Shown here: piece after piece, positions 36,840 to 61,895 of the stretch
How positions within the stretch are numbered: position 1 is the stretch's first letter
How the letters are laid out: every line of letters begins with the position of its first letter
Source of the DNA: a virus
Lineage: Duplodnaviria > Caudoviricetes
DNA length: 64,000 bases
Direction: 5' to 3' (one strand)
IMG/VR virus record: IMGVR_UViG_3300020576_002361
Span: 14,976-78,975 of that record
Made by a program: the position numbers and the translations under genes
The notes under the pieces: generated by a model
Seen by the model: only the letters and a program-made list of their open reading frames with translations
The model's database searches: none
What the model was told of the DNA's origin: nothing

Positions 36840-38792
36840 TCAAGACATCTTGCTGAAATTGTTCTTCTTTTCCACTCTAATAGATCTGTCAAATTTGTCT
36901 GTTAATATATCTCCCTTATGGGAAATAACGAATACGTGAGTATTCACACTAAGATGCTTGAGTAACTTCAGAAAATCTTCTGTTCCAGAAGCATCCAATG
37001 AGCTATCAAATACCTCATCCAATATAAGGATATTAGTATTAGTGCTGTTCTTGGCTCTTGCTATTTCTCTCCAGGTTAACATCAAAGCCATATCGATTCT
37101 GAATTTCTCGCCTTCAGAAAACGAGTTATACTCAAAGTCATCTCGGTGCCTACTCTTTATCTTTTCCTTAAACGATTCATCTAGGTTGAAATTAACAAAG
37201 AAATCCATAGCACTCAAATACTTGTTAATATACTTGTTCATAAGAGGCAGATACTGCTTGACTATTTTGGACTTAATACCGTTATCTTTCAATAAAACTT
37301 GAATAATATCGTAGTCATATTTTCTCAGCATTATCTCTTCTTTTTTAGCGAGATTATCCTTTATATTCTTTCTGAGTAACTCTACCTTTTCCTCTTCCTC
37401 CTTTATAGTTTCATCTATATTTAGGTCCAATGTGTTTCGGATTTTAAGTATGTAGTTATTTGACTCGGAAATCCTAACATCAATCATAGAAATACTAGAA
37501 GATATATCCTGAATTTCTCTTAATATTTGCTTAGCAGCATCGATATTTTTTCTTGTTTTGTCTATCTTCTTGTCTATCTTGGTTACAGCAGAGTTGATTT
37601 CTTCTAACTTCTTAGACATAGAACTGACTGTCTCGTCTCTGAATAGAGCATCTATAGCTCTTTTACAAGTAGGACAGGAATCATTTTCATTATAAAATTG
37701 AATAGACTTAGTTATATTCTTTCCTTCTGTTCCTATAGTAATACGTAGGGAAGTAAATTCCTTTATTTCATCTTCGCATTTAGAAAAAGGCAGCAAAGAT
37801 TCTTTCTTTTCTTCTAACACTTTCATCAATGCTTTCTTTTCTTCCGCAAGCTTAGCATTAGAAGACTCGGCTTCCTTTATTTGTTGTATCTTCTCTTGTC
37901 TATCTTTATTATTTCTGGACTTCAGCTTAGCTATGTGGTCTTCATGAATCTTACATTTTCCTTCATCAGAAGAGATTTCAGATTCTATGGATTTTATATC
38001 CTCTCTTAGGAGAGAATACTTTTCCTTTAGAACTCCATTCATTCTAGTGAAAACCTTAAGATCCAACAGCTCCTCGATCACTTCTCGTCGTTGGCTGCTC
38101 GTTAACTGCATAAATGGGACATAGTTAGCAGAACCCAAGACTACCAATTGAGCAAAAGAATCAAAGTTAAGCTTCAATATGTTTTGCTCTAGATGCTTCT
38201 GATAGTCTAGATTCTTAGCGTCTTGATTTAAAAGTACACCGTCGCAATAGATCTCAAATACAACTGGTTTTAATCCACGTATTATTTTATATTCTTGCTT
38301 TCCTACGCTAAACTCTAACTCAGTAATACAATCTTTATCATTTATGCTATTCACTATTCTGGGTTTGTTTATAAATCTATAAGCCCTACCGAATAGCGCA
38401 AAGGTCAACGCACACAAGAATGTGGAATTGTGTGACACTATTCCATTAGTATAATATTCCTTTACTGTGTTTACCTGTAAATCATATAAATCTTCTGTAA
38501 ATTCGCAACAAGAAACACGTCTGATCTCTTTTTTGCCTGTTTTTGTTAAAACAATATCACCAACTTGACAATCTTTCAGTTTTTTCCATCCGTTGTTTAC
38601 AAAAATCTTATGATCCGGAGAACCTTCCAAATATTGATCTTCTGTTTCTATCTTTAAGATAGGCGAATCATAAGCCGTAATATCCGCCCATTCTATGTCA
38701 TAAAACCCATGACGAGTTTCGACTTTTATCTTACCAATACAATCGGGATTTTGTTGGTAAAATTCTACTATATCTCCAACGGTGCATTTCAT
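36840..38792 (-). CDS. 46: gp46 (Rad50/SbcC-like) C-terminal part fused to split-intein C-fragment
   Basis: 122-aa intein fragment (SPDHK, LYDLQV, YYTNGIVSHN), then STFLCALTFALFG...CPTC...FSEGEK...LILDEVFDSSLD. Confidence 0.93.
   Translation of the reverse strand: MKCTVGDIVEFYQQNPDCIGKIKVETRHGFYDIEWADITAYDSPILKIETEDQYLEGSPDHKIFVNNGWKKLKDCQVGDIVLTKTGKKEIRRVSCCEFTEDLYDLQVNTVKEYYTNGIVSHNSTFLCALTFALFGRAYRFINKPRIVNSINDKDCITELEFSVGKQEYKIIRGLKPVVFEIYCDGVLLNQDAKNLDYQKHLEQNILKLNFDSFAQLVVLGSANYVPFMQLTSSQRREVIEELLDLKVFTRMNGVLKEKYSLLREDIKSIESEISSDEGKCKIHEDHIAKLKSRNNKDRQEKIQQIKEAESSNAKLAEEKKALMKVLEEKKESLLPFSKCEDEIKEFTSLRITIGTEGKNITKSIQFYNENDSCPTCKRAIDALFRDETVSSMSKKLEEINSAVTKIDKKIDKTRKNIDAAKQILREIQDISSSISMIDVRISESNNYILKIRNTLDLNIDETIKEEEEKVELLRKNIKDNLAKKEEIMLRKYDYDIIQVLLKDNGIKSKIVKQYLPLMNKYINKYLSAMDFFVNFNLDESFKEKIKSRHRDDFEYNSFSEGEKFRIDMALMLTWREIARAKNSTNTNILILDEVFDSSLDASGTEDFLKLLKHLSVNTHVFVISHKGDILTDKFDRSIRVEKKNNFSKMS
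38427..38792 (-). mobile_element. Split intein C-fragment (gp46)
   Basis: Block B TxxH-like motif (GSPDH), blocks F/G ending HN, followed by +1 Ser. Confidence 0.9.
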
Positions 38793-38858
38793 AATAAAGT
38801 TTCCACAAAAGTATCACATTCCTCTTTATTCCACAACAAACGCACTGAAATAACCGGA

Positions 38859-39077
38859 TCAGGGAAGATTTTGCCTATTTTTCAAAAATTCTTCAAATTT
38901 TTGCTTTACAGCAGGGTCTTCTATAGAAATATCTATTTCCGTAAGCTTTCTCACACATTTACCTTGACCATTTTGACCAGAAATCAAAGTAGTAGGAGAT
39001 TGCGTAAGGTCTACTTCAGTCCAGTAGTTACCATACGAAAGAAAATTCTTCCATTTTACTTTTTTGAAACAAATCAA
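38859..39077 (-). CDS. 46: gp46 N-terminal part (Walker A) fused to 32-aa split-intein N-fragment
   Basis: FKKVKWKNFLSYGN...LISGQNGQGK|CVRKLTEIDISIEDP...; intein Cys1 at 38957. Confidence 0.92.
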   Translation of the reverse strand: MICFKKVKWKNFLSYGNYWTEVDLTQSPTTLISGQNGQGKCVRKLTEIDISIEDPAVKQKFEEFLKNRQNLP

Positions 39078-39080
39078 ACA

Positions 39081-40139
39081 TTACTCCTTGTCTTCAGAAG
39101 ACAAATCATAACTTTCATTATACAAATCATTTATTATAGTTTTTAACCTATCAGCACAAACATCAGTTAGAGAATCTATTTCCTTAGAAATGATGCTAAC
39201 GGTGTCCTGTGTCTGGTCAACTGTATCAGTTGTATCTACAAAGAGGTCAACCTCTTCGATGATGTTAAATTCCGCTAGATTGGCTTGATAAAATCGATCA
39301 ATTATTTTTTCAAGATCTTTTGGTTTTGTTTTCTTTCTCACCACAAACTTTACATAGCAATCTTTATACTTATCATAATCATAAACAGGAACAGAAGTGG
39401 TGTCATCGTAAACCAGCCTATAGAATATCTTATATGGATTTTCAATAAACTCTAAATCTCCGTTACTTAAGTCTATTGTATGAAATCCTTTGCGTTCGTC
39501 TACATCTGCGAACGTCATATCATACTGAGTTCCAAGGTAGTATATCTGCCCATCATCATGCTTCTGGTGAAAGTGTCCAGAGAAGACCTTGTGAAACATA
39601 CCAACTTCTTCTTTATCTATTCCTTCTTCGCTTAAGATACCACGAAGAACCTGAAAACCCTTGATTGCGAAGTGACCAAATGACAAGGTAGACTTTGTTT
39701 CCTTGACAAAATCATGAAATCTAGACATATTATTGTCGTTTAACCATGGAATCAAAGCTACGGTGTTGCCTTCTATAGAAACATCCGTTGGCTCGGAATA
39801 CACCTTTACGTTAGGATAGTGTGAGTATAACTCCGTGGTGGAGTTTACTTCGGAAGTATTACGGAATACAATATCATGATTACCAAGAATCATGTGAAGA
39901 GTTATTCCCATTTTCATTAATGGTTCAAAGAACTCTGTTCTGCTAAACCGCAAAGTCTCTATATTTACATACTTCCTCTTATCCAGAAAATCACCAAGAA
40001 AGATGATAGTCTTGATGTCGTGTTCCTTAATATAAGGAAGTAGCAGATTATCCAAAAATGTCTTAATGTAAATACGGAATACAGGAGAATCCGATTTTAG
40101 CCCAAAATGCAGGTCATTTAATAACAACACCTTACTCAA
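39081..40139 (-). CDS. 47: gp47 recombination nuclease (Mre11/SbcD-like)
   Basis: LNDLHFG, LGDFLD.RK, ILGNHD, FGHFAI.GF, SGHFH. Confidence 0.95.
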   Translation of the reverse strand: MSKVLLLNDLHFGLKSDSPVFRIYIKTFLDNLLLPYIKEHDIKTIIFLGDFLDKRKYVNIETLRFSRTEFFEPLMKMGITLHMILGNHDIVFRNTSEVNSTTELYSHYPNVKVYSEPTDVSIEGNTVALIPWLNDNNMSRFHDFVKETKSTLSFGHFAIKGFQVLRGILSEEGIDKEEVGMFHKVFSGHFHQKHDDGQIYYLGTQYDMTFADVDERKGFHTIDLSNGDLEFIENPYKIFYRLVYDDTTSVPVYDYDKYKDCYVKFVVRKKTKPKDLEKIIDRFYQANLAEFNIIEEVDLFVDTTDTVDQTQDTVSIISKEIDSLTDVCADRLKTIINDLYNESYDLSSEDKE

Positions 40140-40765
40140 GGATCTTTCTCCATAAACTCATTCAACGGAGATATTTTCTTTGGTTTTTGGTTCTTATTTT
40201 CTTTAATTTTACTGGTTTTCTTATCGAAATATTCTACATCATTTTCATTAAGTTTAAAGAATTCTGCGTATATGTTATTCTTATCCGGATCTATCTCATA
40301 CTTCTTGATTATGTGATCCTTCAAGGCTCCAGTAGTGTCAGCCCTTTCAAACAACTTCATCTTTACATAACATTGCTTCTTTTCCTTTTGGATCCTTCGC
40401 AAGAAGGCAAAGAATATGATTTGTGTAATATACGCAAAAGGATTCTTGGATTTCTCTGGATCAAAGTTATCCAGGTACATTATGGCATTTTCTATGCCAT
40501 CGGAGACCATTTCTTCGCGAAACGTATACCCTGCAAAATTTGGTCTAGATGATAGCCTTTCCGCAATTTTAAGGATTGCTGAACCTATGTACTCCGAAAT
40601 CCTAGGTCGTGTAGTAAGTTCACCGGACGCAAACTTATTCATCTCTGTCTTATAAAGAATCATTTCTTTTAATAAAGTGTCATTATTTACATAATGGTTT
40701 GCGGTACACTCCTTTTCAATAACTACTATTTCTTCTTCCGCCTTCTGTATTATTTCTTCTTTCAT
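40136..40765 (-). CDS. 55: Late sigma factor gp55
   Basis: HYVNNDTLL, YTFREEMVSDGIEN, KSKNPFAYITQIIFFAFLRRIQKEKKQ. Likely start MKEEII at 40765. Confidence 0.95.
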   Translation of the reverse strand: MKEEIIQKAEEEIVVIEKECTANHYVNNDTLLKEMILYKTEMNKFASGELTTRPRISEYIGSAILKIAERLSSRPNFAGYTFREEMVSDGIENAIMYLDNFDPEKSKNPFAYITQIIFFAFLRRIQKEKKQCYVKMKLFERADTTGALKDHIIKKYEIDPDKNNIYAEFFKLNENDVEYFDKKTSKIKENKNQKPKKISPLNEFMEKDP

Positions 40766-40789
40766 TGTAGACCCTTTGTGTACTAGTGT

Positions 40790-40817
40790 ATTATAGTACA
40801 CCTTTGTTCAAAGTCAA
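40790..40817 (-). promoter_or_regulatory. Sigma70-like promoter TTGACT-N16-TATAAT for gp55
   Basis: + strand ATTATA 40790-40795, AGTCAA 40812-40817. Confidence 0.8.
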
Positions 40818-40819
40818 GT

Positions 40820-41102
40820 CCTTCGCTGAGGCTTTGCGAAGCGATTTGCGAAGCAAACAATGAAATCCATTACGAATAGAATACCTCTACTAAAAACCAC
40901 TTTAATAGTTCTCTCTGGATTTTAAAGAACCAGTCAACTTCACCTGTGCGACTCCGCAAAGCCTCCGTCACAAAGATCTCGTCGCTTCGCTCCTCGATCT
41001 TGGTTGTTTTGTTTTTCAAGAAAATTAGGTTTTACAAAACCTGGGTTCTGGGTTACCTGGTTACTCAAGGTACTGTACCCTGGTTACTCAGTTCTTCCTA
41101 AC
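40820..41102 (-). other. Promoter-driven non-coding structured interval (candidate ncRNA or origin)
   Basis: No >=60-aa ORF on the transcribed strand; 11-bp inverted repeat at 40828-40838/40955-40965; AAGATC/GATCTT hairpin; short CTGG(G)TT repeats. Confidence 0.5.
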
Positions 41103-41108
41103 TGGGTG

Positions 41109-41137
41109 ATTATATGCTCGCTGGATACAAAAGTCAA
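41109..41137 (-). promoter_or_regulatory. Sigma70-like promoter TTGACT-N17-TATAAT firing into the non-coding interval
   Basis: + strand ATTATA 41109-41114, AGTCAA 41132-41137. Confidence 0.75.
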
Positions 41138-41156
41138 GGAAGAAATAGAAATATTT

Positions 41157-41597
41157 TCAATCAATATTGAACCTTGGTTTGTGTTGCCAAGAATCTGGAT
41201 TCTTCATATCTCTATCATATTCCTCGTCAGCGTCTAGCTTATGCGATGTCATTCCAGATTTTATATTAGATAGTGCCATCTTCTTGTTTATAGAGTCTTC
41301 TCTAGCCATGGCTTCTGTATACATGGCTAAGACATCGGAATCTGGGTCAGCAAAGGTTACTATCATTGATCTAGGAAGAAAATAGAACTCGTCAGATGAG
41401 TATTCTATCCAAGTTTTTAGCATTATGGTTGTTTTCTTAACTTTCCATGCTTTATCGAATATAGTCTCTGTGCTGATTACCATAGGTCGTTGTAGTATGA
41501 ATGAATTTTTGTCTCTTGATAATCCAGCTATTAGAGTCTCGCCTGTAGATATCCTGATAATTTTGTATTTCGCGGAAGATTGAGATTTATCGCTCAT
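41157..41597 (-). CDS. T4-like Sm-like fold protein
   Basis: YKIIRISTGETLIA...RPM...LKTWIEYS, located downstream of uvsW as in T4-like phages. Confidence 0.65.
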   Translation of the reverse strand: MSDKSQSSAKYKIIRISTGETLIAGLSRDKNSFILQRPMVISTETIFDKAWKVKKTTIMLKTWIEYSSDEFYFLPRSMIVTFADPDSDVLAMYTEAMAREDSINKKMALSNIKSGMTSHKLDADEEYDRDMKNPDSWQHKPRFNID

Positions 41598-41608
41598 ATA
41601 GAAATCCT

Positions 41609-43123
41609 TTATATTCTGATTGTAAACATATCAAAGTCAAACTGCTCCTCATTGTAAATCTTCAATCTATCCATAAAATGCTTTAATGTATAGTTTACAT
41701 GAGATTTGTGATGAAGATCGTCTGAAATATCATAGAGAGTTGCTATTTTCTTGTCATCTGCTTTTCTTAGCTGTCTACCGATGCTTTGTAACACTCTTAT
41801 TCGACTTTTTGACGGAGAGGCAAAGATAATATTATGCAGTTTCTTAATATTAATTCCGATGGAAAATACACCTACCGAAGCAACTATGATAGCATTGTCT
41901 TCTAGTTCCGTGAGAGTTCTAACTGATTCTCTGACCTCGGCTTCGGTTTTACCGTGAACAAAGAAAACCTTTCTATCTTCAGGAACCTTAGACTTTATCA
42001 GCTCGTAAAGTACTTCTCCGTGCTTTTCTACGAACTGAAACAAAACCAACGTATTACCCTTTATTGTAGTAGCCAAGTCTGATATAAAGCTATTTCTCTT
42101 ATCATGAAAAACTAAGTATTCTAGTTCTTCTTGATAAGATTTGCCCTTCATATTTAGGCAATCTTCTTCTTTGTGTTTTAGAGTAATACAGTTTATTTTT
42201 AGAGCAGAAAGAAGGTCTTTATCCATCAACTCTTTGGTAGAAATAACCTTTTGTACTTTACCGGTTAAGCCTTCTATGACCAGTTTGTTGGTGAGCATAC
42301 CGTCAAGCGTACCAGTTAAACCGACTTTAATAGGACTGCGTGTGCATGACTCGAATATGGATGTAATTGACTTGCTTTTTGCGGAGTGAACTTCGTCGCA
42401 TATAACTACAGAAAACTGATCAAAGTACTCTTTTGGTTGATTAATGGCTGATTGCCATGTAGTTATTACAACACTCTTATTTGTTGTTTTCTCTTGACCA
42501 GAGTATATACAATGACAGTTGTTATCTGTACTCCATTTATTTAGAGCAGAGTATTCCTTGAAGTCGTTAAACATCTGTGTTACTAGAGATACGGTAGGAA
42601 CTATAAGAAGAACTTTACCTTCTAGATTATCCAGATAAAATCTTATTAGTCCATAGATAATAAGACTCTTGCCAGACCCAGTTGGGGAAAGCAACAAGCC
42701 TCTAGCGTTTTCTAGTATATACTTGACTCCTTCTACTTGATGATCCATAGCAGTAAGAAGACTGCCTTTGTACGCAGGCTGAAGTTCTTTGAAGAAGGCT
42801 TGTATCTGTTCAGTAGTGAATACAAATCTTGGAGTTTTCTTGAATAACTCTGGATCTAAACCTACTGTATAGTTTCTAGACTTAGCAAATTCCAATATAT
42901 GAGAAAGCAACCCTTTGTATATTAGCTTAGTTCCAAGCGAAAACAGTCTTATTTTACCATCCCATATCTTTGCTTTTACTTTAGGATGAAAGCGGTGATT
43001 GGGTACGTAAAAAGTAAAAGCCTCGCTAAGTTCGACTAGTTTGCCGAAATCTTGCGAGGATATTTTTACGTAAACGTGATCGTGGTTATGTACTTCTAAG
43101 TCATTCATTTCAAGAGATACCAT
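41609..43123 (-). CDS. uvsW: UvsW SF2 DNA helicase
   Basis: WDGKIRLF, SPTGSGKS, CDEVH, GLTGTL, QSIGRQLRK. Confidence 0.96.
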   Translation of the reverse strand: MVSLEMNDLEVHNHDHVYVKISSQDFGKLVELSEAFTFYVPNHRFHPKVKAKIWDGKIRLFSLGTKLIYKGLLSHILEFAKSRNYTVGLDPELFKKTPRFVFTTEQIQAFFKELQPAYKGSLLTAMDHQVEGVKYILENARGLLLSPTGSGKSLIIYGLIRFYLDNLEGKVLLIVPTVSLVTQMFNDFKEYSALNKWSTDNNCHCIYSGQEKTTNKSVVITTWQSAINQPKEYFDQFSVVICDEVHSAKSKSITSIFESCTRSPIKVGLTGTLDGMLTNKLVIEGLTGKVQKVISTKELMDKDLLSALKINCITLKHKEEDCLNMKGKSYQEELEYLVFHDKRNSFISDLATTIKGNTLVLFQFVEKHGEVLYELIKSKVPEDRKVFFVHGKTEAEVRESVRTLTELEDNAIIVASVGVFSIGINIKKLHNIIFASPSKSRIRVLQSIGRQLRKADDKKIATLYDISDDLHHKSHVNYTLKHFMDRLKIYNEEQFDFDMFTIRI

Positions 43124-43547
43124 TTGTAAATTTTCGCCAGTCGATTATAGATCTTATAACCCACTGCCTATTATTTATCTCTTTGATAACGCCTTCCAAA
43201 TACTCCAATTTATATTTCTGAAGGTCTAGTTTTACCTTCAATTCTATTAACTGTTGATCGGCATTAATGTAAATATCAAGATCGCTCTTTAGTATCTTCA
43301 ACGGAAAAGGATCTATGTTGAGTTTGGTTAAGACCTCTTCGTCGATTTTGCCGGTATAATATTCCCACTTAAACTTCAACATCTCGGCGTATTCTTTTTC
43401 CAGCTTCTTGTAAATATACTTCTCGTCTAAGAATATTCCAAGATATTTACCGTGAAGCTGTGGTATTCTAATGGCTTCGACATCTAGCTGTAAAGAATCC
43501 AGTTGTGTATCTTTGTCTACGAGTTCTTTCAATTTTTCAATATTCAT
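43110..43547 (-). CDS. uvsY: UvsY recombination mediator
   Basis: IPQLHGKY...KWEYYTGK...IKEINNRQWVIRSIIDWRKF. Confidence 0.92.
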   Translation of the reverse strand: MNIEKLKELVDKDTQLDSLQLDVEAIRIPQLHGKYLGIFLDEKYIYKKLEKEYAEMLKFKWEYYTGKIDEEVLTKLNIDPFPLKILKSDLDIYINADQQLIELKVKLDLQKYKLEYLEGVIKEINNRQWVIRSIIDWRKFTNGIS

Positions 43548-43562
43548 TATATAATCCTAAAG

Positions 43563-44081
43563 TCATTGTTCTTTTATTTGATATGTAGTAAATGCTAGTT
43601 CCACGGTGGAAAGAAGAATGTTTGTTTCCGTAGCTGCTGAGTCGAACTCGACGTAAGATAGACTTACTGGAAAGCAGTTAGAAAACTCAACCTTGTGTGA
43701 TATGTTATGCGTGTTGGTGAGAATAGTCAAGAGAACATCATCTGAAAAGTGCGTTTCTTGAGGTCTGTACTCTAAGTGGTCAGTATAGTTCGAACACTGT
43801 AAGATCCAGTTTCGGATCTCTTTCCAGTTTTCTAAGTTCTCGTCTACTATGAAAGATACCGAAAGGTTCTGGTGTTCTACTTCACCTGCGGGTCTCTTTA
43901 TAGTATTGAATGGGGTTCTTTGATTAGCTACACCAATAGAAAGACCAGGTAACAACACACTTTGGCACATGTAGGTAGTGTTTGGTAATCTCTTTACCAT
44001 CATCCTAAATCTAGTCGAAAACAAGTTATTCTTGTTTTGTGGTTGATTTTGATACAAACCAAAAGCCAGATCTTCGTTCAT
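43563..44081 (-). CDS. 3: Tail completion / tube terminator protein gp3
   Basis: NNLFSTRFRM..KRLPNTTYMCQSVLLPG...FIVDENLENWKEI..WI...FPVSLS. Confidence 0.88.
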   Translation of the reverse strand: MNEDLAFGLYQNQPQNKNNLFSTRFRMMVKRLPNTTYMCQSVLLPGLSIGVANQRTPFNTIKRPAGEVEHQNLSVSFIVDENLENWKEIRNWILQCSNYTDHLEYRPQETHFSDDVLLTILTNTHNISHKVEFSNCFPVSLSYVEFDSAATETNILLSTVELAFTTYQIKEQ

Positions 44082-44265
44082 TTGCTTACCTTCTTATTTT
44101 AGCACATGCGTATATTTTAGAAATATCGATGGAGTTTTTCCATGACATATCTGGAATATTTCGAATATGCTTGCTTGAAGTTTTGATCAAAAAAGCCCAC
44201 AGTGGTACCATAACGTACCATCTATTTTTCCATATTTTAGTTAGTAACATACTATTGTATTTATA

Positions 44266-44547
44266 TCAAGCGTTATAGATATTGGGTGCTGCTGTCTTGT
44301 TCTTGGTTGGCTGCTGAGGTGTGTTGCCGGTTGGTCCAGTTAAAGAGAGCAACAGACATTGAGCAACTAACTGCGCACGGTTGATATCTTGACCTATTGG
44401 GGTTTGTAAAATTAAGTAAGTTATTGCGTCTTTGAAGCTTATCAAAGACGAAAGATTATACATTTGTTGCGATGTAGTACCATAATTTTGAATAATCAAT
44501 GCGGTCGGATTACTAAACTCTTGGTTACCTACATATAGTTGATACAT
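44266..44547 (-). CDS. Hypothetical late protein
   Basis: 93-aa ORF directly after a TATAAATA promoter. Confidence 0.7.
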   Translation of the reverse strand: MYQLYVGNQEFSNPTALIIQNYGTTSQQMYNLSSLISFKDAITYLILQTPIGQDINRAQLVAQCLLLSLTGPTGNTPQQPTKNKTAAPNIYNA

Positions 44548-44564
44548 GTATAATCCTTTTTATA

Positions 44565-44572
44565 TATTTATA
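44565..44572 (-). promoter_or_regulatory. T4-type late promoter TATAAATA
   Basis: + strand TATTTATA, 18 nt upstream of ORF 44547. Confidence 0.8.
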
Positions 44573-44575
44573 AAA

Positions 44576-45969: not shown

Positions 45970-45974
45970 ATGTT

Positions 45975-46118: not shown

Positions 46119-46130
46119 TTCAAGATTCCT

Positions 46131-53105: not shown

Positions 53106-53116
53106 ATATTTACCCT

Positions 53117-55963
53117 TTAGAACCGCGGAAAATTCCCTTTCTTGTTTCCATATTTATTAGTTGGAACATTTACGTTTGGATCAAGCTGAGGATCTAATGT
53201 ATCTTCTTGCCCAGGAGGGAACCCATCATAGGGTTGTTCGCCGCCCTGTATAGGAGAATCAAAGTTGTTATCTAATCCAAAAGCATCATCTCTTTCTTCT
53301 TGATCTATTTGGTTTTGCTCGTCTTTCAAGTTTTCTTCTTCCATCTGTAGGTCCATAAGCTCAATATCAGCGTCATTCTGACGAAGAATATTCTTTCTTA
53401 CCCATTCCTTAGAATAGAAAGTACCTATAAATGGAGAAATAGCAGTCAACGAGTTCAACCTTTCGTTTTCAACTTCTAGTTCCTTAAGTTCAGAGAAATA
53501 CATGTCATGAGCAAAGTGGAAGTGAGCTTTCTTCTTGAAAGTGTCTTCCCATTCGTCTTCAGTCATTATTCCTTTAAGAAGTAGTTGCTTCTTTAGTAGT
53601 TCGTAAAACACTTCTGAGAATTTTGTTCTAAGCCGTTCAATAAACTTGGCAAACTTTATTTCATCTCTAGAGATTTCCATAGAACGACCGATCTGGAAAC
53701 TCTTTTGTTCGTTTTCTACTCTAGAATAAGGTATGTTCAGAGCTTTAGAAAGCTTACGAAGGAAGTAGTTTATATCGGAAATTTCACCAATATTGGAGTT
53801 CTTTGTAAAGACTCCGCATGAAAGAGCAAAAGTGTGATGGTTATGATATATTTCGTTACCATCTATAGTAAGAGTTCCTACTTCGATAGGATCTGCTATG
53901 TATTCTATAGAAACTATTCTATGATTATGTAACGAATGTTGTTTGCGCAACTCTGTCCATGATGAATATCCAAACTCTTTTATAGCTGATTTGATAATCG
54001 TAGGGCTAAATCCATCAGATATATTCCAGTTTGGAACTGTCTTAGATTCGTTTAGTTTATTCAAACAAGAACGCATAGCATCGGATTCGTTTAGCAAAGA
54101 AACAACGTCTTTGATAGTAACTTCGTGCGTTGATTTCCCCTTTATATTATCTATAATAAAGCAAAGTATTCCGTCTTTTCTAGAAGAAATAATAGACTGT
54201 TTTTCCTCTTCTGACTTAGAATTCCAGGAATCCTTCAACGAACAACTTACCTTTTCACAATAAGCCGCGTAGTTTTCTGGATCGTTGTTTTTCATATACT
54301 CTATTTTTTGCCTTAATGCTGCTGCGCCCAACTTAGCATTTTCAATACCAAAAGAATGATCTGTGTGATATACAGAGTGGTCATCCCAAGACATATAGCA
54401 AAGATTTTCTGGAGTATTATTAAATCTATCGTGATCCTTGTGGTGTATTACGTTTTTGTTGTATTCGGCATATGATTCGTTGTAAATAAAGTCGTGTACT
54501 TCAGTATTCTTAAAGAAAGATGCTACCATGCTATGAGTATATACCCATTGTTTGGTGGCATTATCATATACCATTTCATAGTCTTTCTTCTTGTTACCGC
54601 CTATTGTCTTTTTCTGACTATAGAAAGGAATAAGTGAAGATCCAGTAGATAACTCATCTGCTCTAACAAATCCTACTCCGTATACAGGGAATTTGTGGTC
54701 AGGAGTACATATAATGTGCTTACCATTATCAAAGGTTATTTTCATTACCTTTGCTGATTTTTGAGTAACTCCCGCCCATGTTATAATACCCGGCTTAACT
54801 TCTCCGGTTACTTCGTCGCACGAATATGCCCACAATTTCTTTCCAGAATTCATTTCTTCTGTTATTTGAGAAATGGTCAACTCACGACCATCTAACAGAG
54901 GAACCTTTGTATCCATAGCCAAGCACGCACCAGGTAAAGTATTAATTTCCGTTCCTTTGCCGCCTTCTCTTCTTGGTAGCCAGTAGTCTTCAAGTACAGA
55001 TAAGTAACGTCTTTCGTCTCTTACTTCTCCAGTGTTCGCATCATAAGAAAGCTTATTTCTATATCTGTTAATAAGCTCTTTCATGTACTGTTCGGCTTTG
55101 GCCTTTGGAAGGTTACCTACATCAATATAGAAAGCACGTCTTTCTGGTGCTCTGGCTAAGCGATAGATAACTACGGAGTCCTCCATCATCTTTAGCTGAT
55201 TGAGAGGTCTAATAGCCTTATGAAGATAACCAAATACCAATTTCTTTTGAGGATCATATAATCCCGATGTTACATACACGATTACATCCGGACTAATCTT
55301 AATACCGGAGATAGAAATACCGGTTCCTCTATTTACTTGAGGAAGAGAAGTGTCTATGATTGTTTTATTGTAAACATAGAACTCATTCTTGATCGTAATG
55401 ACTTCTATGCCATTCGGATCTAGTTTCTTTTCAATCTCTCTGACCTTTTTCATGTTCAAAGGATCGATATAGCGTATTTCCTTTATTCCGTCTTCTGGAT
55501 TCTTTTCGTCTATAATAGTATGAAAATAACATCTAGCGTCAATATACCAGCGTCTAAAGTAATCATACCCTTTTGTCCTAAAATTGAGAAGCCCCAGTAT
55601 TGTATCAAACTCTCTGTATATCTTGTGCTTCGTGGATTCAGAATAATCTAGCTGATCCATGATGAGTTTGACGGGTTCTTCAACCTCGTCCGTCACTATA
55701 GCTTCGTTAGTGATTTCTTCTATAGCAGTATCTATTTCTGGGTGTATGGACATCGATCTATAACGTACAACTAAATCTGTATCGTTTTTATAAGAACCAT
55801 CGATATCAACATACTGACTGCTGAAATGAGAACCCCCGATACCTCGGGCATTCTCAATAGTTATGGCGCCATCGTCAAAAGCAGGTGGAGCAAAGGATTG
55901 TCTAGATTCTTGCTCTTTCTTTTGTTCTTTCGAAAACGGGAATTGAAAACCAAATAAATTCAT
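53117..55963 (-). CDS. 20: Portal protein gp20 containing an intein
   Basis: HPEIDTAIEEI.NEAI, RRWYID.R, YRLARAPERRAFYIDVGNLPK.KAEQY, EDYWLPRREGGKGTEI.TLPG, then after the insert NIGEI.DI.YF..KL.KALNIP. Confidence 0.96.
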   Translation of the reverse strand: MNLFGFQFPFSKEQKKEQESRQSFAPPAFDDGAITIENARGIGGSHFSSQYVDIDGSYKNDTDLVVRYRSMSIHPEIDTAIEEITNEAIVTDEVEEPVKLIMDQLDYSESTKHKIYREFDTILGLLNFRTKGYDYFRRWYIDARCYFHTIIDEKNPEDGIKEIRYIDPLNMKKVREIEKKLDPNGIEVITIKNEFYVYNKTIIDTSLPQVNRGTGISISGIKISPDVIVYVTSGLYDPQKKLVFGYLHKAIRPLNQLKMMEDSVVIYRLARAPERRAFYIDVGNLPKAKAEQYMKELINRYRNKLSYDANTGEVRDERRYLSVLEDYWLPRREGGKGTEINTLPGACLAMDTKVPLLDGRELTISQITEEMNSGKKLWAYSCDEVTGEVKPGIITWAGVTQKSAKVMKITFDNGKHIICTPDHKFPVYGVGFVRADELSTGSSLIPFYSQKKTIGGNKKKDYEMVYDNATKQWVYTHSMVASFFKNTEVHDFIYNESYAEYNKNVIHHKDHDRFNNTPENLCYMSWDDHSVYHTDHSFGIENAKLGAAALRQKIEYMKNNDPENYAAYCEKVSCSLKDSWNSKSEEEKQSIISSRKDGILCFIIDNIKGKSTHEVTIKDVVSLLNESDAMRSCLNKLNESKTVPNWNISDGFSPTIIKSAIKEFGYSSWTELRKQHSLHNHRIVSIEYIADPIEVGTLTIDGNEIYHNHHTFALSCGVFTKNSNIGEISDINYFLRKLSKALNIPYSRVENEQKSFQIGRSMEISRDEIKFAKFIERLRTKFSEVFYELLKKQLLLKGIMTEDEWEDTFKKKAHFHFAHDMYFSELKELEVENERLNSLTAISPFIGTFYSKEWVRKNILRQNDADIELMDLQMEEENLKDEQNQIDQEERDDAFGLDNNFDSPIQGGEQPYDGFPPGQEDTLDPQLDPNVNVPTNKYGNKKGNFPRF
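53798..54925 (-). mobile_element. Contiguous 376-aa intein with HNH endonuclease domain in the portal gene
   Basis: TLPGA|CLAMDTKV...CTPDHKF...VIHHKDHDRFNNTPENL...HTFALSCGVFTKN|SNIGE. Confidence 0.92.
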
Positions 55964-55973
55964 TATATAACCT

Positions 55974-56261
55974 TTATTTTACTGGCGGCGAAGCTCTGCT
56001 TCCAACATAAGGGGCAACTCCTCGTACTGCTGCTCTTAGTTGAGAATCTTTTCCATAATGAGATGATTTTGCTCGATTGATGTGTCTTCCGGTTGGATTG
56101 CTTTTGCTAAATTTCTCTGCTTTCCTTTGCCTTCTATTATAGAAAAGTTTCTTGCCAGCATAAAACGGAGCTACCTCGCCGGAGTCTCCCGGATATGCCT
56201 TCCAAGCACGACGGTTTAGACGTTTGTTGCCTTCTGAAATAAACTCTTTAAACGTAAGCAT
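55974..56261 (-). CDS. Small basic putative internal head protein with T4 capsid-targeting sequence
   Basis: MLTFKEFISE|G start; the remainder is Arg/Lys-rich. Confidence 0.7.
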   Translation of the reverse strand: MLTFKEFISEGNKRLNRRAWKAYPGDSGEVAPFYAGKKLFYNRRQRKAEKFSKSNPTGRHINRAKSSHYGKDSQLRAAVRGVAPYVGSRASPPVK

Positions 56262-56269
56262 ACAACCCT

Positions 56270-56806
56270 TTATGACGAAGTACCTTCCATCTGGTAGTAC
56301 TGATATTCTATGGTTACTTGAAATGTTTCGATAGCAGTCTGTGCTTCCCAGTTTAGGTCTATTGGTCCAATGTCAGAAGGCCAGCAATCAATGAAAGTAT
56401 AGTTCTTGATATCTCTGCCTTCTCTGTCTAGTTGAGTAACATACCATTGCTGAGCGTATGACGACAGAGCATTTCGACCGATATTGGTCTCCACTCTGTT
56501 CATGATATCGCTCCACTTTTCAAAGGCGTTTCTCAAAGCAAAGTTATTGTCATTATAAACGTTTATTACCCAAGATCCAAATTGGCGGTCGCCTGCTACC
56601 TTTAGCTCACGACCTTGAAATGGCACACGAACTACACCAAGGGTGACTTGTGGTAGTTGAGCTGCATAGCATAAAAACTGGATTGTGTTTGATGGATTAA
56701 GTCCAGCAGCCGCAACAGCAGCAGCAGGAAACGTTCCGTTTACTCGGAACTGGTTAGCTCTTGCTCCAGACCCGGAAAGCTGATTTTTGAATTCCGATAT
56801 GTTCAT
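56270..56806 (-). CDS. 19: Tail tube protein gp19
   Basis: GARANQFRV, FQGRELKVAGDRQFGSW...YND, WPSDIGPIDLNW. Confidence 0.96.
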   Translation of the reverse strand: MNISEFKNQLSGSGARANQFRVNGTFPAAAVAAAGLNPSNTIQFLCYAAQLPQVTLGVVRVPFQGRELKVAGDRQFGSWVINVYNDNNFALRNAFEKWSDIMNRVETNIGRNALSSYAQQWYVTQLDREGRDIKNYTFIDCWPSDIGPIDLNWEAQTAIETFQVTIEYQYYQMEGTSS

Positions 56807-56877
56807 GTTACCGCATCTCCTTAAGGGATTCTATCAGAAATAATCTGGCACAAAGTTATTTATGCCAGATTTGATTA

Positions 56878-58644
56878 TTATCGAGGACTGTTTAGAGAGG
56901 TGATTTCTTCGAACGAAACACCAGATCTAGTTGCGATGAAGTTTAGCTGGATATAGTTGATCGAACGCGATGGTTTGATGAATATATCTGCTACAAATCT
57001 ATTGCTATCGATTATCTCCGAGGTATTATTTGTTTCATCGCAAATAACCTTGAAGTCATAGACACCTCTTCGAGATTGAACATCTCTGAGGAATGGTTCT
57101 ACCATGCTTACGAACATGGCTCTAGTAAACGCATCGTTGAACTCGAACAACTGATACTTAGCAGCAATGGAAGTTGCTTTCTCTAGTACAATGAAGAGTC
57201 TGCGGACGTTGATTCTATCGAAGGCGCTTGGCTTGGTCTGAGCGGTCTTATCACCATATAGAACTGTTCCTTCTCCAGGAAGCGTTACTACTGGGTTGAT
57301 GGATCTAGCGTACAGATAATCTCTTTCAGCCTTTGTAGGATTGAATGCTAGCTTAGCAACACCCTTAATCTGACCTCTGTTGAAACCAGCTGGAGACCAC
57401 CAAGGATCGTTGGTGAGGTCTGTTCTGGCACACAAGCCAGCGATATCTGCGTTTAGAGGCACCCAACGCCATACGTCGTTATATCTATCGTACTGATACT
57501 TATATCCAGTATCAATAAATGCGTACGAGTTGTTTCCGATAGCATTTCTTAGAGTTTCACATGCAGCAATCTTTGTGGCAGAAGTAGCTGTTGGGTTAGA
57601 AACAGCAGGAGACACGAAAGCCACGCAGTCAACTCTAGCCTTTGCTATGTTAGCAACGTTGGCGCTGGCGCTTGAATCTAGTGGTCCAGCAATCAAGAAC
57701 GACACATCAACAAAATCTGGATCAGCGAACAGACCATATCCAACTGTGTTTCCTGAAGATGGGGCGATATCTGAGTCAGCGGTTGGCGAAGAAGCTGTTC
57801 CTCCAAGGAAGGAATAAATTGCACCACCGGTTACACCGCCGTTCCAAGAGAACGCGCTTCCTGGGTTGCTAATCGTACCGTAAGTACCGCCGTCGCCAGC
57901 AGGGTGTACAGAAATACCAGTTGGGTGGTTGAGCCACCAAACATACTTGGATTCATTGTTAATAACATTGACATAGTAGTTGGAAGATCCATCTGGGCGT
58001 CTAGCGTTGTTAGCCTTGGAAACGCCTTCGTATTTCTCAAGCAACGTACCAGTAAGTCCAGAAAATCTACCATCTTCGTCGATGATAGCAATGTGCATTT
58101 CGTCGTACGTTCCACCATAGCCTTCAGCAAATGGGGAAGTTGTAGGAGCAGCAGCAAACTGACCAGAAAGGCTCCATGAAGCAAATGCAGCAGTTCCGTC
58201 ACACAACTCGATTCGGAGTGAGTTGCCCAATGGACCAGCATACTTAGCAGCAAACTGAGCCGTAGCGCCTGCTCCGGAGTAAGCTATTGTTCCAGAAGAA
58301 GTATTGTTATCATATACTTCACTGTTTTTAATCAATATTGATTGATTTCCAGAAGTTGGTCCGGCGACCGCGTTCTTGGAGCTTGAATGTACTGTTCTAA
58401 CCACCTGAAGGTTATTTCCATAACTTAGAAAGTTGGCAGCTGAGAAGAAGTATTCGTAGGTATCGTTATCTGGAGCACCAAATAGCTGCACCAAATTCGA
58501 TTCGCTATCTACTAGAATACGCTGATCAGCAGGACCCCACTGAAAATAACCCGCAATTCCGGCTGGAGTGGTAGCCACGGCAGGAATAACGGAGCTAAAA
58601 TCCCGTTCCTGAACCAAAACACCAGGGCTAACTTGAAATGCCAT
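56878..58644 (-). CDS. 18: Tail sheath protein gp18
   Basis: MAFQVSPGV, FQWGP, WWSPAGFNRGQI, SAFDRINVRRLF, SRSINYIQLNFIATRSG. CATAAATA after it (56857-56864) could drive gp19. Confidence 0.97.
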   Translation of the reverse strand: MAFQVSPGVLVQERDFSSVIPAVATTPAGIAGYFQWGPADQRILVDSESNLVQLFGAPDNDTYEYFFSAANFLSYGNNLQVVRTVHSSSKNAVAGPTSGNQSILIKNSEVYDNNTSSGTIAYSGAGATAQFAAKYAGPLGNSLRIELCDGTAAFASWSLSGQFAAAPTTSPFAEGYGGTYDEMHIAIIDEDGRFSGLTGTLLEKYEGVSKANNARRPDGSSNYYVNVINNESKYVWWLNHPTGISVHPAGDGGTYGTISNPGSAFSWNGGVTGGAIYSFLGGTASSPTADSDIAPSSGNTVGYGLFADPDFVDVSFLIAGPLDSSASANVANIAKARVDCVAFVSPAVSNPTATSATKIAACETLRNAIGNNSYAFIDTGYKYQYDRYNDVWRWVPLNADIAGLCARTDLTNDPWWSPAGFNRGQIKGVAKLAFNPTKAERDYLYARSINPVVTLPGEGTVLYGDKTAQTKPSAFDRINVRRLFIVLEKATSIAAKYQLFEFNDAFTRAMFVSMVEPFLRDVQSRRGVYDFKVICDETNNTSEIIDSNRFVADIFIKPSRSINYIQLNFIATRSGVSFEEITSLNSPR

Positions 58645-58688
58645 TATTTTATCTCCTTAAATGTCTTTATATCTTGCTTCGCACGAAG

Positions 58689-58696
58689 TATTTATA
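58689..58696 (-). promoter_or_regulatory. T4-type late promoter TATAAATA for gp18
   Basis: + strand TATTTATA upstream of the ATG at 58644. Confidence 0.8.
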
Positions 58697-58716
58697 AAAA
58701 TAGCGATTTCTGCCCA

Positions 58717-60513
58717 TTACCATTCAAAATCCATCTTTTTGCTTTTGGGTTTATTTGGAGTCTCCTCTTCAGCTAGCCATTGTTCAAAGCTTCTATTGTC
58801 TTCTTCAAACATGCGACTTGTGATATCGTCTACTCCATCCTCTAGAAATCCAAATAATGTAATGTCATCTTCAGCTTTCTTTATCTTGTCTTCAAACAGT
58901 CTCTTTTTGACATCTGTGCTTGTATACTCTTGAAAGAAAGGCTGAGATGTTAACCAACAAAATACTACCAAAGACATAACTACGTCATCATGATTGCCTT
59001 CTGATGCAGCATAAGTGTTCTTTGTTTTGACAAACGTGCTGAATTCGGAAACAATATCAAAGTCATTGACTATTATCTTTCTGTTTTCTATGAAATCCTT
59101 CAAAACTGAGCATCCATAGTTTTTGATCTGGTAGCTCATCTTGACACCTTTTCTGGACCTACCACTAAACCCACCGTCTGCTTTTTGACCATGTTTTTGA
59201 GTAGAGCAAGACACGTAAATAAGATGCTCATATTCCAATTCTTCAACCAAGCTAGTAGCTATGCTATCACCCGTTGGATCGTTATTTTCTATTAGGGTAT
59301 ATGCGTTGTTGTATTGCTTTGCTATCTTATGAATGATATTAGATAGTAACTGTGGCGAAAGCTGATTATTTCTGTAGACTGCTACTACCTTGTATGGGAA
59401 TTTAGTGCAGTCTATTACGGTTACAGCATGGTAATCTAGGTCTATACCTTGAGACGGGTCTACACATATAGTATATAAATGCTTCTCTATAGGAGGCTCG
59501 TAAATCTTAAATCCGTCTGTTGTTTTCATCACTGGCTCGTTATAAACCAACGAAGCTAGAGCAGACGGAGAAAGAAGTGTATTATCAGATCCTAAGAACT
59601 CTACTTCAAACTCAGCACTCCATCTGGCTTCTTTGTTGCCAGCGAAGTTTGCCATGATTTGCTTTTTGAACTCTTCATCTCTACCAGGAACTTCATTCCA
59701 TTTAGCTTCTACTCGTACATACGTGTTTCTGTTATTTACGGAATCCATCCACATTTTATAGAATAGGTTTAGCCCGTTTGGAGTAGAAATAACTACTAGT
59801 TTAGTATTAGTACCAGCCGAGATCGTTGGAAATACGGAGCTGAAGAAGTCTTCAGCCAAGTTTGCTGGAACGAATGCGAATTCGTCCAGAATAACAACGT
59901 TATGCGTACCACCTCTGGCAGATGAAGACGAGGTAGACGCTACAGTGACTTTAGATCCATTTTCCAACTGAATGCTGTGTTTGTTCCATTCGACAACACC
60001 TTGTTGCATCCATTTTGGAAGATGCTCAAATGAGTTCTTAATCATGTTCAGCAAGTTCTTTGCCGTAGTTTGCTTGTTAGCTAGTACGGCAATAGAAATG
60101 TTGGGATTAAATAAAAGCTGATGAAGTGCCCAACTCATTGTTGTGGTGGAATTGTGTGAAACTATTCCGTTAGTATAATACAAGTTGCCGTCTTCGACAT
60201 CAATCAAATCGTACATGTTATCGGATTCGTTTGTTTCTTCTACAGAAAGAACTTCTTCAAACGCATCTCCTTCGCAAAAAATCATATCACCTACTTGTAG
60301 GTCGCATGTATATACTTCCATTAGACAAGTAGGGTCATCCAAATCTCTGCGTATTACAATATGATAATCCGCACAAACAAGTTCTCTGTTTGCGGTTTTT
60401 ATTATCCACTTGGTGTATTCTTTGGTTTTACCAATACCAGAAAAAGATTGATACCCTGTTGGAGTTTCTACCTCCCATTCATCGGTTAAAACTTCTTCTA
60501 TAAACTCAGCCAT
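58717..60513 (-). CDS. 17: Large terminase gp17 C-terminal part fused to split-intein C-fragment (121 aa)
   Basis: WEVETPTG...CADYH...MYDLIDV...YYTNGIVSHN|STTT (intein ends at 60151), then ILDEFAF, ISTPNG, DPSQG..LDY, HDDVVM. Confidence 0.94.
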   Translation of the reverse strand: MAEFIEEVLTDEWEVETPTGYQSFSGIGKTKEYTKWIIKTANRELVCADYHIVIRRDLDDPTCLMEVYTCDLQVGDMIFCEGDAFEEVLSVEETNESDNMYDLIDVEDGNLYYTNGIVSHNSTTTMSWALHQLLFNPNISIAVLANKQTTAKNLLNMIKNSFEHLPKWMQQGVVEWNKHSIQLENGSKVTVASTSSSSARGGTHNVVILDEFAFVPANLAEDFFSSVFPTISAGTNTKLVVISTPNGLNLFYKMWMDSVNNRNTYVRVEAKWNEVPGRDEEFKKQIMANFAGNKEARWSAEFEVEFLGSDNTLLSPSALASLVYNEPVMKTTDGFKIYEPPIEKHLYTICVDPSQGIDLDYHAVTVIDCTKFPYKVVAVYRNNQLSPQLLSNIIHKIAKQYNNAYTLIENNDPTGDSIATSLVEELEYEHLIYVSCSTQKHGQKADGGFSGRSRKGVKMSYQIKNYGCSVLKDFIENRKIIVNDFDIVSEFSTFVKTKNTYAASEGNHDDVVMSLVVFCWLTSQPFFQEYTSTDVKKRLFEDKIKKAEDDITLFGFLEDGVDDITSRMFEEDNRSFEQWLAEEETPNKPKSKKMDFEW

Positions 60514-61555
60514 TTATAAACTCCAAACATGTAGATATAACTCGATTGGGATCTTTTTTATAATCCCTCTCGGATATATGTAGTATTTTATATCCGTCTT
60601 GAATTAAAACCTGATCTCTATCTTTATCTCTTTGCTGGTTTCCTCTGGCTTCACCGTGCCAGTAGTCTCCATCAAATTCAATTATGAGTTTTTTGGATTT
60701 TAGGAGGAAGTCAAAGAAAAATTTCTTTCCCGACGGAGATATATAGAAATATTCTTTAGAAGAAACACCGTGGTCTAATTTTTCGTTATTCTCTCCTAAT
60801 GTAGCAAAATATATATCTTCGTATTGTTCGCGTACCAGTTCGTATACTTTCCAAAATAATTCTTGAGACATTTTTGAATACCCCAAACCATTCATCATTT
60901 TTGCTCGGGTTATTCTTTCTATTTCCTCTGGAGGTTTGGAATTTAAGTTATTCTGCCATTTTTCTTGACGCTTGTTCCAAATATCTCGACCTTTTTCTTC
61001 CCCGTGTTTAGCAATACATTTTTCCAGAGAAAATGTGGATTGTCTTTCGGCTATCTTTAATTTGGCTTCTTCTTGTGTAAATCCTTGTTTAATCCAAAAT
61101 TCTGTGGTAGTGTTGTTATTCCCGTTTTCTTTATTAGACTTGCTTATTTTTTCTAGTACTTCTTGTTTATTTGTTGTACTGGCGTGAATAAATTTATCCG
61201 AAAGAGCAGAAAATTTCCCACCGTGTTGATATCCTGGATTATCTTTACCTGATGTAAACGTCGATATTTTATTACTATATGTTTCGCTGCATACGGGCTT
61301 GTTATATGTTTTGATATATTCTTCTGTATCTATTTTATGAATACGCTTTATATGGGTGGAGATATTATGGGATTTAAGACCACATATTTCACACGCAACC
61401 ATATCTGGTTCTTCTTGAAACTTTTCTTTACGCTTATTCATTTGTTGGCATCTGAGGCAGCAAAACATCCTGGTATGTCGTTTCGCCGGGAATACGGTAT
61501 TACAATGGAGGCAAGTTTTCTGGATTTGTTTTGTTTTGTTTTTCATGCAAGTCAT
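60506..61555 (-). CDS. Free-standing Vsr/DUF559-like homing endonuclease between the terminase halves
   Basis: N-terminal CxxC/CCxxC and C2H2-like motifs; C-terminal FFDF...IIEFDGDYWHG...QQRD..RD...GYKILHI.E. Confidence 0.85.
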   Translation of the reverse strand: MTCMKNKTKQIQKTCLHCNTVFPAKRHTRMFCCLRCQQMNKRKEKFQEEPDMVACEICGLKSHNISTHIKRIHKIDTEEYIKTYNKPVCSETYSNKISTFTSGKDNPGYQHGGKFSALSDKFIHASTTNKQEVLEKISKSNKENGNNNTTTEFWIKQGFTQEEAKLKIAERQSTFSLEKCIAKHGEEKGRDIWNKRQEKWQNNLNSKPPEEIERITRAKMMNGLGYSKMSQELFWKVYELVREQYEDIYFATLGENNEKLDHGVSSKEYFYISPSGKKFFFDFLLKSKKLIIEFDGDYWHGEARGNQQRDKDRDQVLIQDGYKILHISERDYKKDPNRVISTCLEFING

Positions 61556-61895
61556 TATAGAGTGCTCCTATGGTGGTGTCAAGAATTTCACCCGTCTTTT
61601 TGTTGCGAATTCTTATAGGAGTATTTAGACAAACACACTTTCCGCTCTGACGTGCGATCTTACAAATTGTAAACCTATTTTCGTGAATGGTCTTTACTAT
61701 GTTTTTTTGAAAGTTATACATCTTGAAAGGAGTTATTCCGTGGTCAAGGGAAACAATCTTAACATAGTTTTCCATAAAATAAATGGGATCGTCAGCGCAT
61801 TTTTGTAGTTCTAGAACTTGCTCTGGAGTAAAATTTATCCTGACTCCTGCGCTCTTTAGCGTAGGATTACCCATATAATTTTCATTGTTGCTCAT
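61500..61895 (-). CDS. 17: Large terminase gp17 N-terminal part fused to split-intein N-fragment (45 aa)
   Basis: YMGNPTLK...KCADDPIYF..NYVKIVSLDHG..PF.MY.FQ...KIARQSGK|CVCLNTPIRIRNKKTGEILDTTIGALY; Cys1 at 61637. Confidence 0.93.
   Translation of the reverse strand: MSNNENYMGNPTLKSAGVRINFTPEQVLELQKCADDPIYFMENYVKIVSLDHGITPFKMYNFQKNIVKTIHENRFTICKIARQSGKCVCLNTPIRIRNKKTGEILDTTIGALYNDLHEKQNKTNPENLPPL

Follow-up and report, generated by a model that had tools for sequence, protein, structure and literature searches.

The stretch of DNA analysed here, referred to as the window, covers 64,000 nucleotides (nt; positions 14,976 to 78,975) of IMG/VR record IMGVR_UViG_3300020576_002361, a 78,975-bp record of a marine T4-like phage that is ~44% complete. 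Two unrelated ATPase genes in this window, gp46 and the terminase gene gp17 (TerL), are each carried as two open reading frames (ORFs) with the halves of a split intein between the exteins, and all genes of the two loci that are discussed here lie on the minus strand. In each gene, an N-extein is followed by the N-terminal intein fragment (IntN) in one ORF, and the C-terminal fragment (IntC) is followed by the C-extein in the other. Here, we document the anatomy of these loci together with the family membership, purifying selection, mobility and different split sites of their inteins. The original prediction, which read both genes as split at GK|CV...YYTNGIVSHN|ST, is borne out by the ORF translations, and both inteins occupy the equivalent Walker A position in the two ATPases. 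The inteins are naturally split at both loci, as the halves are separate ORFs with their own starts and stop codons and no read-through.

The N-terminal gp46 ORF (38859-39077) encodes a 40-residue N-extein and a 32-residue IntN. The Rad50/SbcC-like N-extein (38958..39077, 40 codons) has a TTG start, shares its beginning with relatives, matches Pfam AAA_23 at residues 6-40 and ends in the Walker A motif GQNGQGK. The IntN (38862..38957, 32 codons, followed by a stop codon at 38859-38861) starts with CVRK and consists of CVRKLTEIDISI plus a family-specific helix, DPAVKQKFEEFL; Cys1 and Thr6 are invariant in an alignment of nine gp46 N-fragments. A spacer of 66 nt (38793..38858) separates this ORF from the C-terminal one (36840-38792). 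There, the IntC (38427..38792, 122 codons) starts at the canonical first helix (TVGDIVEFY), has SPDH as block B and LYDLQ as block F, and ends with YYTNGIVSHN, with SHN as its terminal motif. The C-extein (36840..38426, 528 codons plus stop) starts with STFL and matches Pfam SMC_N and SbcC_Walker_B. The predicted trans-spliced gp46 would be 568 residues long; its partner gp47 (Metallophos) is encoded at 39081-40139.

In the TerL gene, the N-terminal ORF (61500-61895) encodes an 86-residue N-extein and a 45-residue IntN. The N-extein (61638..61895, 86 codons) ends with ARQSGK and aligns with the uninterrupted TerL of a related phage (locus L047), which reads ARQSGKSTTTMSY; this locates the insertion between the Lys and the Ser of Walker A. 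The IntN (61503..61637, 45 codons, stop codon at 61500-61502) starts with CVCL and is laid out as strand 1, a hairpin, the helix TTIGALYNDL and a tail, with the secondary structure taken from a contiguous relative, P0084. The C-terminal ORF (58717-60513) contains the IntC (60151..60513, 121 codons), with CADYH as block B, MYDL as block F and YYTNGIVSHN at its end, and the C-extein (58717..60150, 477 codons plus stop), which starts with STTT and matches Pfam Terminase_6N and Terminase_6C. The predicted product of trans-splicing would have 563 residues. Between the halves lies a free-standing, Vsr-like gene of the homing-endonuclease-like kind (60506..61555) of 349 residues (Pfam DUF559, 7.9e-9; REase_MTES_1575, 1.9e-8), which overlaps the IntN by 56 nt (61500-61555) and the IntC by 8 nt (60506-60513) in other frames. 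The final 18 codons and the stop codon of the TerL IntN lie, in a different frame, within the 5' end of the endonuclease gene, and the ATG start of the IntC overlaps the endonuclease stop codon (ATGGCTGA). The overlaps at both ends suggest that the IntN tail arose as a by-product when this gene was inserted, and that translation of the IntC is coupled to the gene.

In fractured genes, the host gene lies in two pieces whose split-intein halves flank a free-standing GIY-YIG or Vsr-like endonuclease gene (PMC2677866). Such a free-standing gene stands between the intein halves of TerL, as in the fractured genes of Dassa et al. 2009, and the gp46 locus has the 66-nt spacer only. Positions 38793-38840 of this spacer show 83% identity (blastn) to the last 48 nt of a 431-residue ORF located between the two parts of gp46 in locus L028. 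The loci L028, L045 and L047 belong to one ENA contig, the closest relative of the window phage. The 431-residue ORF and the TerL endonuclease of the window have a 56-residue module in common, with 57% identity. The similarity of the spacer to the 3' end of the L028 ORF indicates that it keeps the remnant of a free-standing endonuclease gene that was deleted while gp46 stayed split. The gp46 locus is thus a derived, endonuclease-less state that arose through a deletion of ~1.26 kb.

Two intein families with different split positions

The gp46 and TerL inteins of the window are ~33% identical overall. A phmmer comparison between the two IntC fragments gave 15 bits, wholly from the last 50 residues, and the IntN fragments are identical at 11 of 32 residues. 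Searching with the gp46 IntC returned 540 cluster representatives, each of which stands for one 50%-identity cluster, at E-values up to 0.001; ~80 of the best 150 matches carry a gp46-like extein. The gp46 family occurs in split forms of ~650 residues, all of which start at one intein position, and in contiguous forms of ~720 residues. The TerL P-loop family comprises 54 clusters, nearly all split at one position and two contiguous. Searches for related loci with single IntC queries found 0 and 4 loci, and an alignment query found only 4.

To relate the two families, we used a tree of their shared region, which spans ~126 columns and was built from sequences that searches with the window pair had gathered. 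One clade comprises the TerL P-loop inteins (Shimodaira-Hasegawa-like approximate likelihood ratio test, SH-aLRT, 99). The gp46 inteins form another (SH-aLRT 90), which is joined by inteins of divergent Rad50-like proteins and a few that are hosted by helicases. Both clades lie within an unresolved polytomy together with inteins from other TerL sites. Profile scores agree with this separation: the two inteins reach 170 and 154 bits on the profile of their own family and 59 and 57 bits on that of the other. A signature that covers blocks F and G, YDL...[YF][YF][TAS]N[GND]I[VL]SHN|S, is common to both families. The two inteins are thus homologous members of one phage mini-intein group, in which they represent old site-specific lineages; it counts against a closer statement of their kinship that the tree, as sampled, cannot place the two clades as sisters among all inteins. 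The low pairwise identity, the separate site-specific clades and the matching profile scores argue against a recent copy from gene to gene in this genome. We also considered the window inteins as recent duplicates of each other, and rejected this on the same pairwise identity and score and on the nesting of each in its own clade.

The original prediction held that one intein lineage had moved between unrelated ATPases through the shared Walker A sequence, and proposed an intein phylogeny as a check. The phylogeny gave separate clades within one broad homologous group, and so does not support this history for the window pair. Movement of this kind is real in general. In an IMG/VR contig of 85 kb (L012, 1067-4342), the P-loop of a Rad50-like gene (NGTGK|CVGIN) is interrupted by a TerL-type, atypically split intein with a 39-residue IntN and a 367-residue Vsr-like ORF; on the TerL profile, the IntC of this intein reaches 140 bits, versus 79 on the gp46 profile. 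This locus shows that one type of intein occurs naturally in ATPases of two unrelated kinds. Another TerL-type IntC, P0077 (134 bits on the TerL profile versus 62.5 on the gp46 profile), has a C-extein with a weak DnaB-like match (Pfam DnaB_C, E 1.5e-4, 21.7 bits, under the 27-bit cut-off), and gp46-type IntC fragments were also found in helicase-like proteins. As a TerL-type intein sits in the Rad50-like gene of L012, the proposal that inteins hop between the P-loops of unrelated ATPases through the GK|S/T site is sound in general. The Walker A motifs of three further genes in the window had been predicted to be free of inteins, and this holds for gp41 (13185-14663), UvsX (30638-31666) and UvsW (41609-43123), each of which is a single uninterrupted ORF of normal length with no intein match.

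To compare where the two inteins are cut, we mapped the split positions on AlphaFold models of the contiguous relatives P0127 and P0084, rather than on models of the window's own halves. In P0127, a contiguous gp46-type protein (predicted local distance difference test, pLDDT, 88-98 for the intein), a strand at 50-52 is followed by helices at 55-61 and 68-77. The gp46 split of the window maps between these two helices, immediately before the canonical first helix (alignment and DSSP). The model of P0084, a contiguous TerL intein, contains strands, a hairpin, a helix at 104-110 and a low-confidence loop at 114-124, and the TerL split maps into this loop, after the first helix. Splits before and after the first alpha-helix are known as S1 and S2, respectively (PMC13014065). 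On these models, the TerL intein is split at S2, as are AceL and GOS-TerL, and with its short IntN and its IntC within the range of ~104-122 residues it has the proportions of that type. The gp46 intein is split at an S1-like position, as are VidaL and PolB16. However, the S1 type has an IntN of ~15-16 residues from the first strands only, whereas the gp46 IntN has 32 residues here (21-39 across the family) and a short helix of its own, DPxxxxKFxxFL, that replaces the hairpin. The suggestion that the two inteins differ in split position is thus upheld by the mapping. As an adaptation to co-residence, the different split sites were considered and rejected: neither site varies within its family, which places the origin of the difference outside this genome.

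The P0127 model has the standard Hint fold, with NrdJ-1, gp41-1, NpuDnaB and VidaL as best matches in the PDB. Against gp41-1, NrdJ-1 and VidaL, the target-normalised template modelling scores (TM-scores) are 0.75-0.89 (E ~1e-8). The short IntN fragments alone gave chance matches only in the PDB. The residues of class 1 inteins are present in both window inteins (C1, SPDH, LYDLQ and SHN|S in gp46; C1, CADYH, MYDL and SHN|S in TerL), and both are predicted from sequence to splice.

We consider it quite probable that two cassettes of the fractured-gene type, independent of each other and from two old site-specific sister families of one phage mini-intein group, reside in this phage, and that neither is a copy of the other. 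Each of these selfish cassettes would lie between the Walker A Lys and Ser, with the +1 Ser doubling as the splicing nucleophile. Each host protein would be made as two polypeptides, of which the short IntN would dock onto the long, nearly complete IntC. The docked halves would form a class 1 Hint fold, and protein trans-splicing would restore intact gp46 and TerL.

Selection, homing and turnover of the cassettes

All catalytic and family-invariant residues are present in both window inteins. Ratios of nonsynonymous to synonymous substitution rates (dN/dS) were 0.063 for the gp46 IntC and 0.19 for the gp46 IntN, both relative to L028, and 0.027 for the TerL IntC relative to its nearest relative, with dS at 0.5-1.1. 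This indicates that both inteins are under purifying selection. Inactivity of one of the two had been named as an outcome that would speak against the original prediction; with intact residues and dN/dS at 0.03-0.19, neither looks inactive. It thus seems very improbable that either split gene, with gp46 as the likeliest candidate, is a defunct remnant from which no functional protein is made. The gp46 locus does have no intervening endonuclease gene, and its spacer is decayed sequence with stop codons. Against this stand the catalytic residues, which are all retained, and the low dN/dS of both gp46 intein halves (0.06-0.19 at dS ~0.5-1.1). Moreover, both ORFs are intact, the start codon of the IntC is exactly that of L028, and no second gp46 was found in searches of the 79-kb record, which represents ~44% of the genome.

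Nucleotide identity between phages is higher in the cassettes than in their hosts. On the gp46 side, it is 83% for the IntC versus 66% for the C-extein and 67% for gp47. On the TerL side, it is 95% for the endonuclease gene (versus the L029 copy) and 91% for the IntC, compared with 75% for the C-extein and 77% for the sheath gene. A gradient of this kind is typical of recent homing, and the two inteins, whose divergence between phages is much smaller than that of the host genes, behave as independent mobile elements.

The element content of the closest relative differs from that of the window at gp46, UvsW, TerL and portal alike. In the relative, gp46 is split with the 431-residue ORF between its halves. 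Its UvsW is fractured (L028, 3013-5835) into a UvsW-N with an intein N-part (347 residues) and a C-part (296 residues), with a 327-residue TnsA-like endonuclease ORF that overlaps both pieces; UvsW of the window is intact. In its TerL (L047, 240-2501), the P-loop is intact and a contiguous intein of ~185 residues adjoins Walker B (SFN|CISG...IHVSN|CIILDEFAF); this intein ends in Ser-Asn, not His-Asn. The portal of the closest relative is free of inteins. The window portal gene (53117-55963, minus strand, 948 residues) contains a contiguous intein (Pfam Intein_splicing, residues 355-704) with an HNH_3 domain (HNH at residues 503-529), and the portals of the close relatives L047 and L029 have 576-601 residues and no intein. 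Elsewhere in the window, an 851-residue ORF (14706-17261, minus strand) encodes an NAD-dependent sugar epimerase/dehydratase fused to a C-methyltransferase (Methyltransf_13/14), a sugar-modification enzyme in a phage.

The junction repeat and partner specificity

The DNA at the two C-terminal junctions is nearly the same. Copy A (38422..38456) covers the last 10 codons of the gp46 intein plus the Ser codon and 2 nt of the Thr codon, and copy B (60146..60180) lies at the junction of the TerL IntC and C-extein. The two copies are identical at 33 of 35 positions, which agrees with the two mismatches that had been reported, and their flanks are without similarity. Both families share the block G signature [YF][YF][TAS]N[GND]I[VL]SHN|S[TS]. 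The exact peptide YYTNGIVSHN occurs in seven gp46 and six TerL cluster representatives, and it also matches the consensus of the engineered Cat intein. As an empirical control, we searched with a 26-nt degenerate pattern, which found 32 loci; these gave 75 pairs that join members of the two families and come from different genomes. Of these pairs, 9% differ at no more than two of the last 26 nt, and the mean over all pairs is 4.3 differences. A degenerate 35-nt pattern for the full peptide had one match in IMG/VR and none in metagenome contigs. As 9% of the pairs from different genomes are equally close over these 26 nt, the repeat reflects mostly the conservation of block G plus codon bias.

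Synonymous codon choice weighs against conservation as the whole explanation. Given identical peptides, nine of the 11 codons match, compared with 4.4 expected from the codon usage of the phage (p 0.004), and this modest synonymous excess is not fully explained by conservation alone (p ~0.004 in the model, 0.09 empirically). Alternatively, the near-identity may be a short gene-conversion patch between co-resident inteins, that is, concerted evolution of their 3' ends, in which the recombination machinery of the phage would act on the conserved block G microhomology. The codon matches, two minor Ser codons (TCA and TCC) among them, are in line with such a patch, as are comparisons with orthologs. 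The window copies differ from each other at 2 of 35 positions, whereas the gp46 copy differs at 6 of 35 from its L028 ortholog. The TerL copy differs at 4 of 35 from its 97%-identical ortholog in L029, which is more than the distance between the window copies. In the TerL of L027, which encodes the same 12 residues, 7 synonymous sites differ. However, cross-family pairs from different genomes can be as close, and the peptide itself recurs in both families. No likeness extends into the flanks, block F or the N-junction. A co-resident pair in G007, a 236-kb IMG/VR phage that is 98% complete, has different block G residues, without homogenisation. The test also has 11 informative synonymous sites only, for a repeat that was noticed post hoc. 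We therefore regard gene conversion as unlikely. The closest relative offers no second case for the within-genome comparison of block G, as the P-loop of its TerL is intact and the intein of this protein, a different one, lies at Walker B.

The original prediction asked whether two such inteins are orthogonal or cross-splice. We expect that the window pair is functionally orthogonal, as the IntN fragments share so few residues, the cuts differ by one helix and split inteins of both types also reside together in G007. With cuts one helix apart, a gp46-N fragment paired with a TerL-C fragment would lack this helix, and a TerL-N fragment paired with a gp46-C fragment would carry it twice. Some observations speak against such an expectation. 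In atypical split inteins, cross-reaction of short IntN fragments is possible at 40-50% identity (PMC3443213). Splicing also tolerates fragments that overlap, and it is among inteins with an atypical split that most cross-talk occurs (PMC7090010). The first strands of the two window inteins are identical at 5 of 12 residues. For these reasons, we infer orthogonality only from the sequences and models.

If the inteins did cross-react in the infected cell, chimeras of TerL-N with gp46-C or of gp46-N with TerL-C would form, either as wasteful by-products or as a regulatory coupling of recombination and packaging. The two inteins share Cys1-Val2, Thr6, the last 10 residues and the +1 Ser, and belong to the short-IntN, atypically split kind that is most prone to cross-talk (PMC3443213, PMC7090010). 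In addition, the IntN fragments of GOS-TerL and AceL-TerL are interchangeable, according to a review (PMC11766414). Nevertheless, cross-reaction seems improbable to us: the IntN fragments match at only those 11 of 32 residues, the helix would be missing or doubled in cross pairs, and selection would act against chimeras, as both proteins are essential. Moreover, G007 is at least one further near-complete genome with such co-residence, which argues that it is tolerated.

G007 carries the gp46-type and TerL-type split inteins together with two further relatives. Its loci L090, L096 and L103-L105 contain four related intein C-parts, at the TerL P-loop, a second TerL site, the gp46 P-loop and a fourth position. 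The C-part at the second TerL site (HN|CEFIGS) is Cat/AceL-like, and the fourth precedes a C-extein that is DnaB-like by eye only (LASLEMS).

Different timing may also keep the two inteins apart, as early versus late expression of their hosts would, by analogy with T4, separate them. For the T4-type late promoter TATAAATA, the window has 12 matches versus 9 expected, which is no enrichment. Matches stand just upstream of several structural genes, and TerL-N and gp46/47 have no match directly upstream.

A more far-reaching reading would see the gp46 family as a third atypical split architecture, with an S1-like cut and a private docking helix in the IntN, that forms a natural orthogonal pair with its S2 relative and whose 3' ends have been homogenised by gene conversion. 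Taken as a whole, we consider this reading doubtful.

Comparison with known systems

The two loci are genuine, well-preserved representatives of an element type that is already known, and their gp46 host and split architecture go beyond the literature searched; our literature searches for an intein in gp46, Rad50 or SbcC found no report. The known mechanism of splicing is unchanged by these findings. For intein biology, they illustrate that cassettes turn over faster than host genes across related phages, that the same intein type occupies the P-loops of different ATPases, and that an endonuclease gene can disappear from a host gene that remains tied to trans-splicing for good. Split inteins with a short IntN are sought for protein labelling, and few natural ones have been characterised (AceL/GOS-TerL, VidaL and PolB16). 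A pair that is co-resident, related and differently split is a candidate two-colour set for orthogonal ligation, and could be used to test directly how partner specificity is determined.

Dassa et al. 2009 described a fractured gp17-like terminase locus with an unusually long C-part of 122 residues that lacks motif N1 only, and the TerL locus of the window has exactly this layout (PMC2677866). The window gp46 locus differs from it in the loss of the endonuclease gene, and gp46/Rad50 is absent from the eight host types of that study, whose short metagenomic fragments did not make co-residence in the same genome visible (PMC2677866).

Among solved structures, the best relative of the window TerL IntC is CatC, a consensus atypical TerL intein (PDB 6DSL_B, E 3.3e-10), with which it shares NLYYTNGIVSH. 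AceL-TerL, GOS-TerL and Cat, like the window TerL intein, combine a short IntN with a long IntC and are split after the first helix (S2). However, the characterised AceL and GOS-TerL inteins have Cys at +1 (table in PMC11766414), whereas the window TerL intein has Ser at +1 inside the P-loop. As Cys is at +1 there, and as the Cat-like IntC of G007 precedes CEFIGS, AceL and GOS-TerL are probably located at a different TerL site, the CEF(I/L)GS site.

VidaL and PolB16 OarG are split at S1 with an IntN of 15-16 residues, and the gp46 intein is likewise split before the first canonical helix. In gp46-type inteins as in VidaL and PolB16, the IntC holds nearly the whole fold. VidaL superposes on the P0127 model with a target-normalised TM-score of 0.83, although the sequence match is not significant (E 0.2), and the host protein and insertion site of VidaL and PolB16 differ from those of the gp46 intein.

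The behaviour that we predict for the window pair is known from gp41-1, gp41-8, NrdJ-1 and IMPDH-1, which are phage-derived and recognise only their own partners (PMC11766414; matrix in PMC7090010). Those inteins have the canonical split, with a long IntN and a short IntC, and are mutually unrelated, whereas the window pair is atypically split, distantly related and co-resident in one phage.

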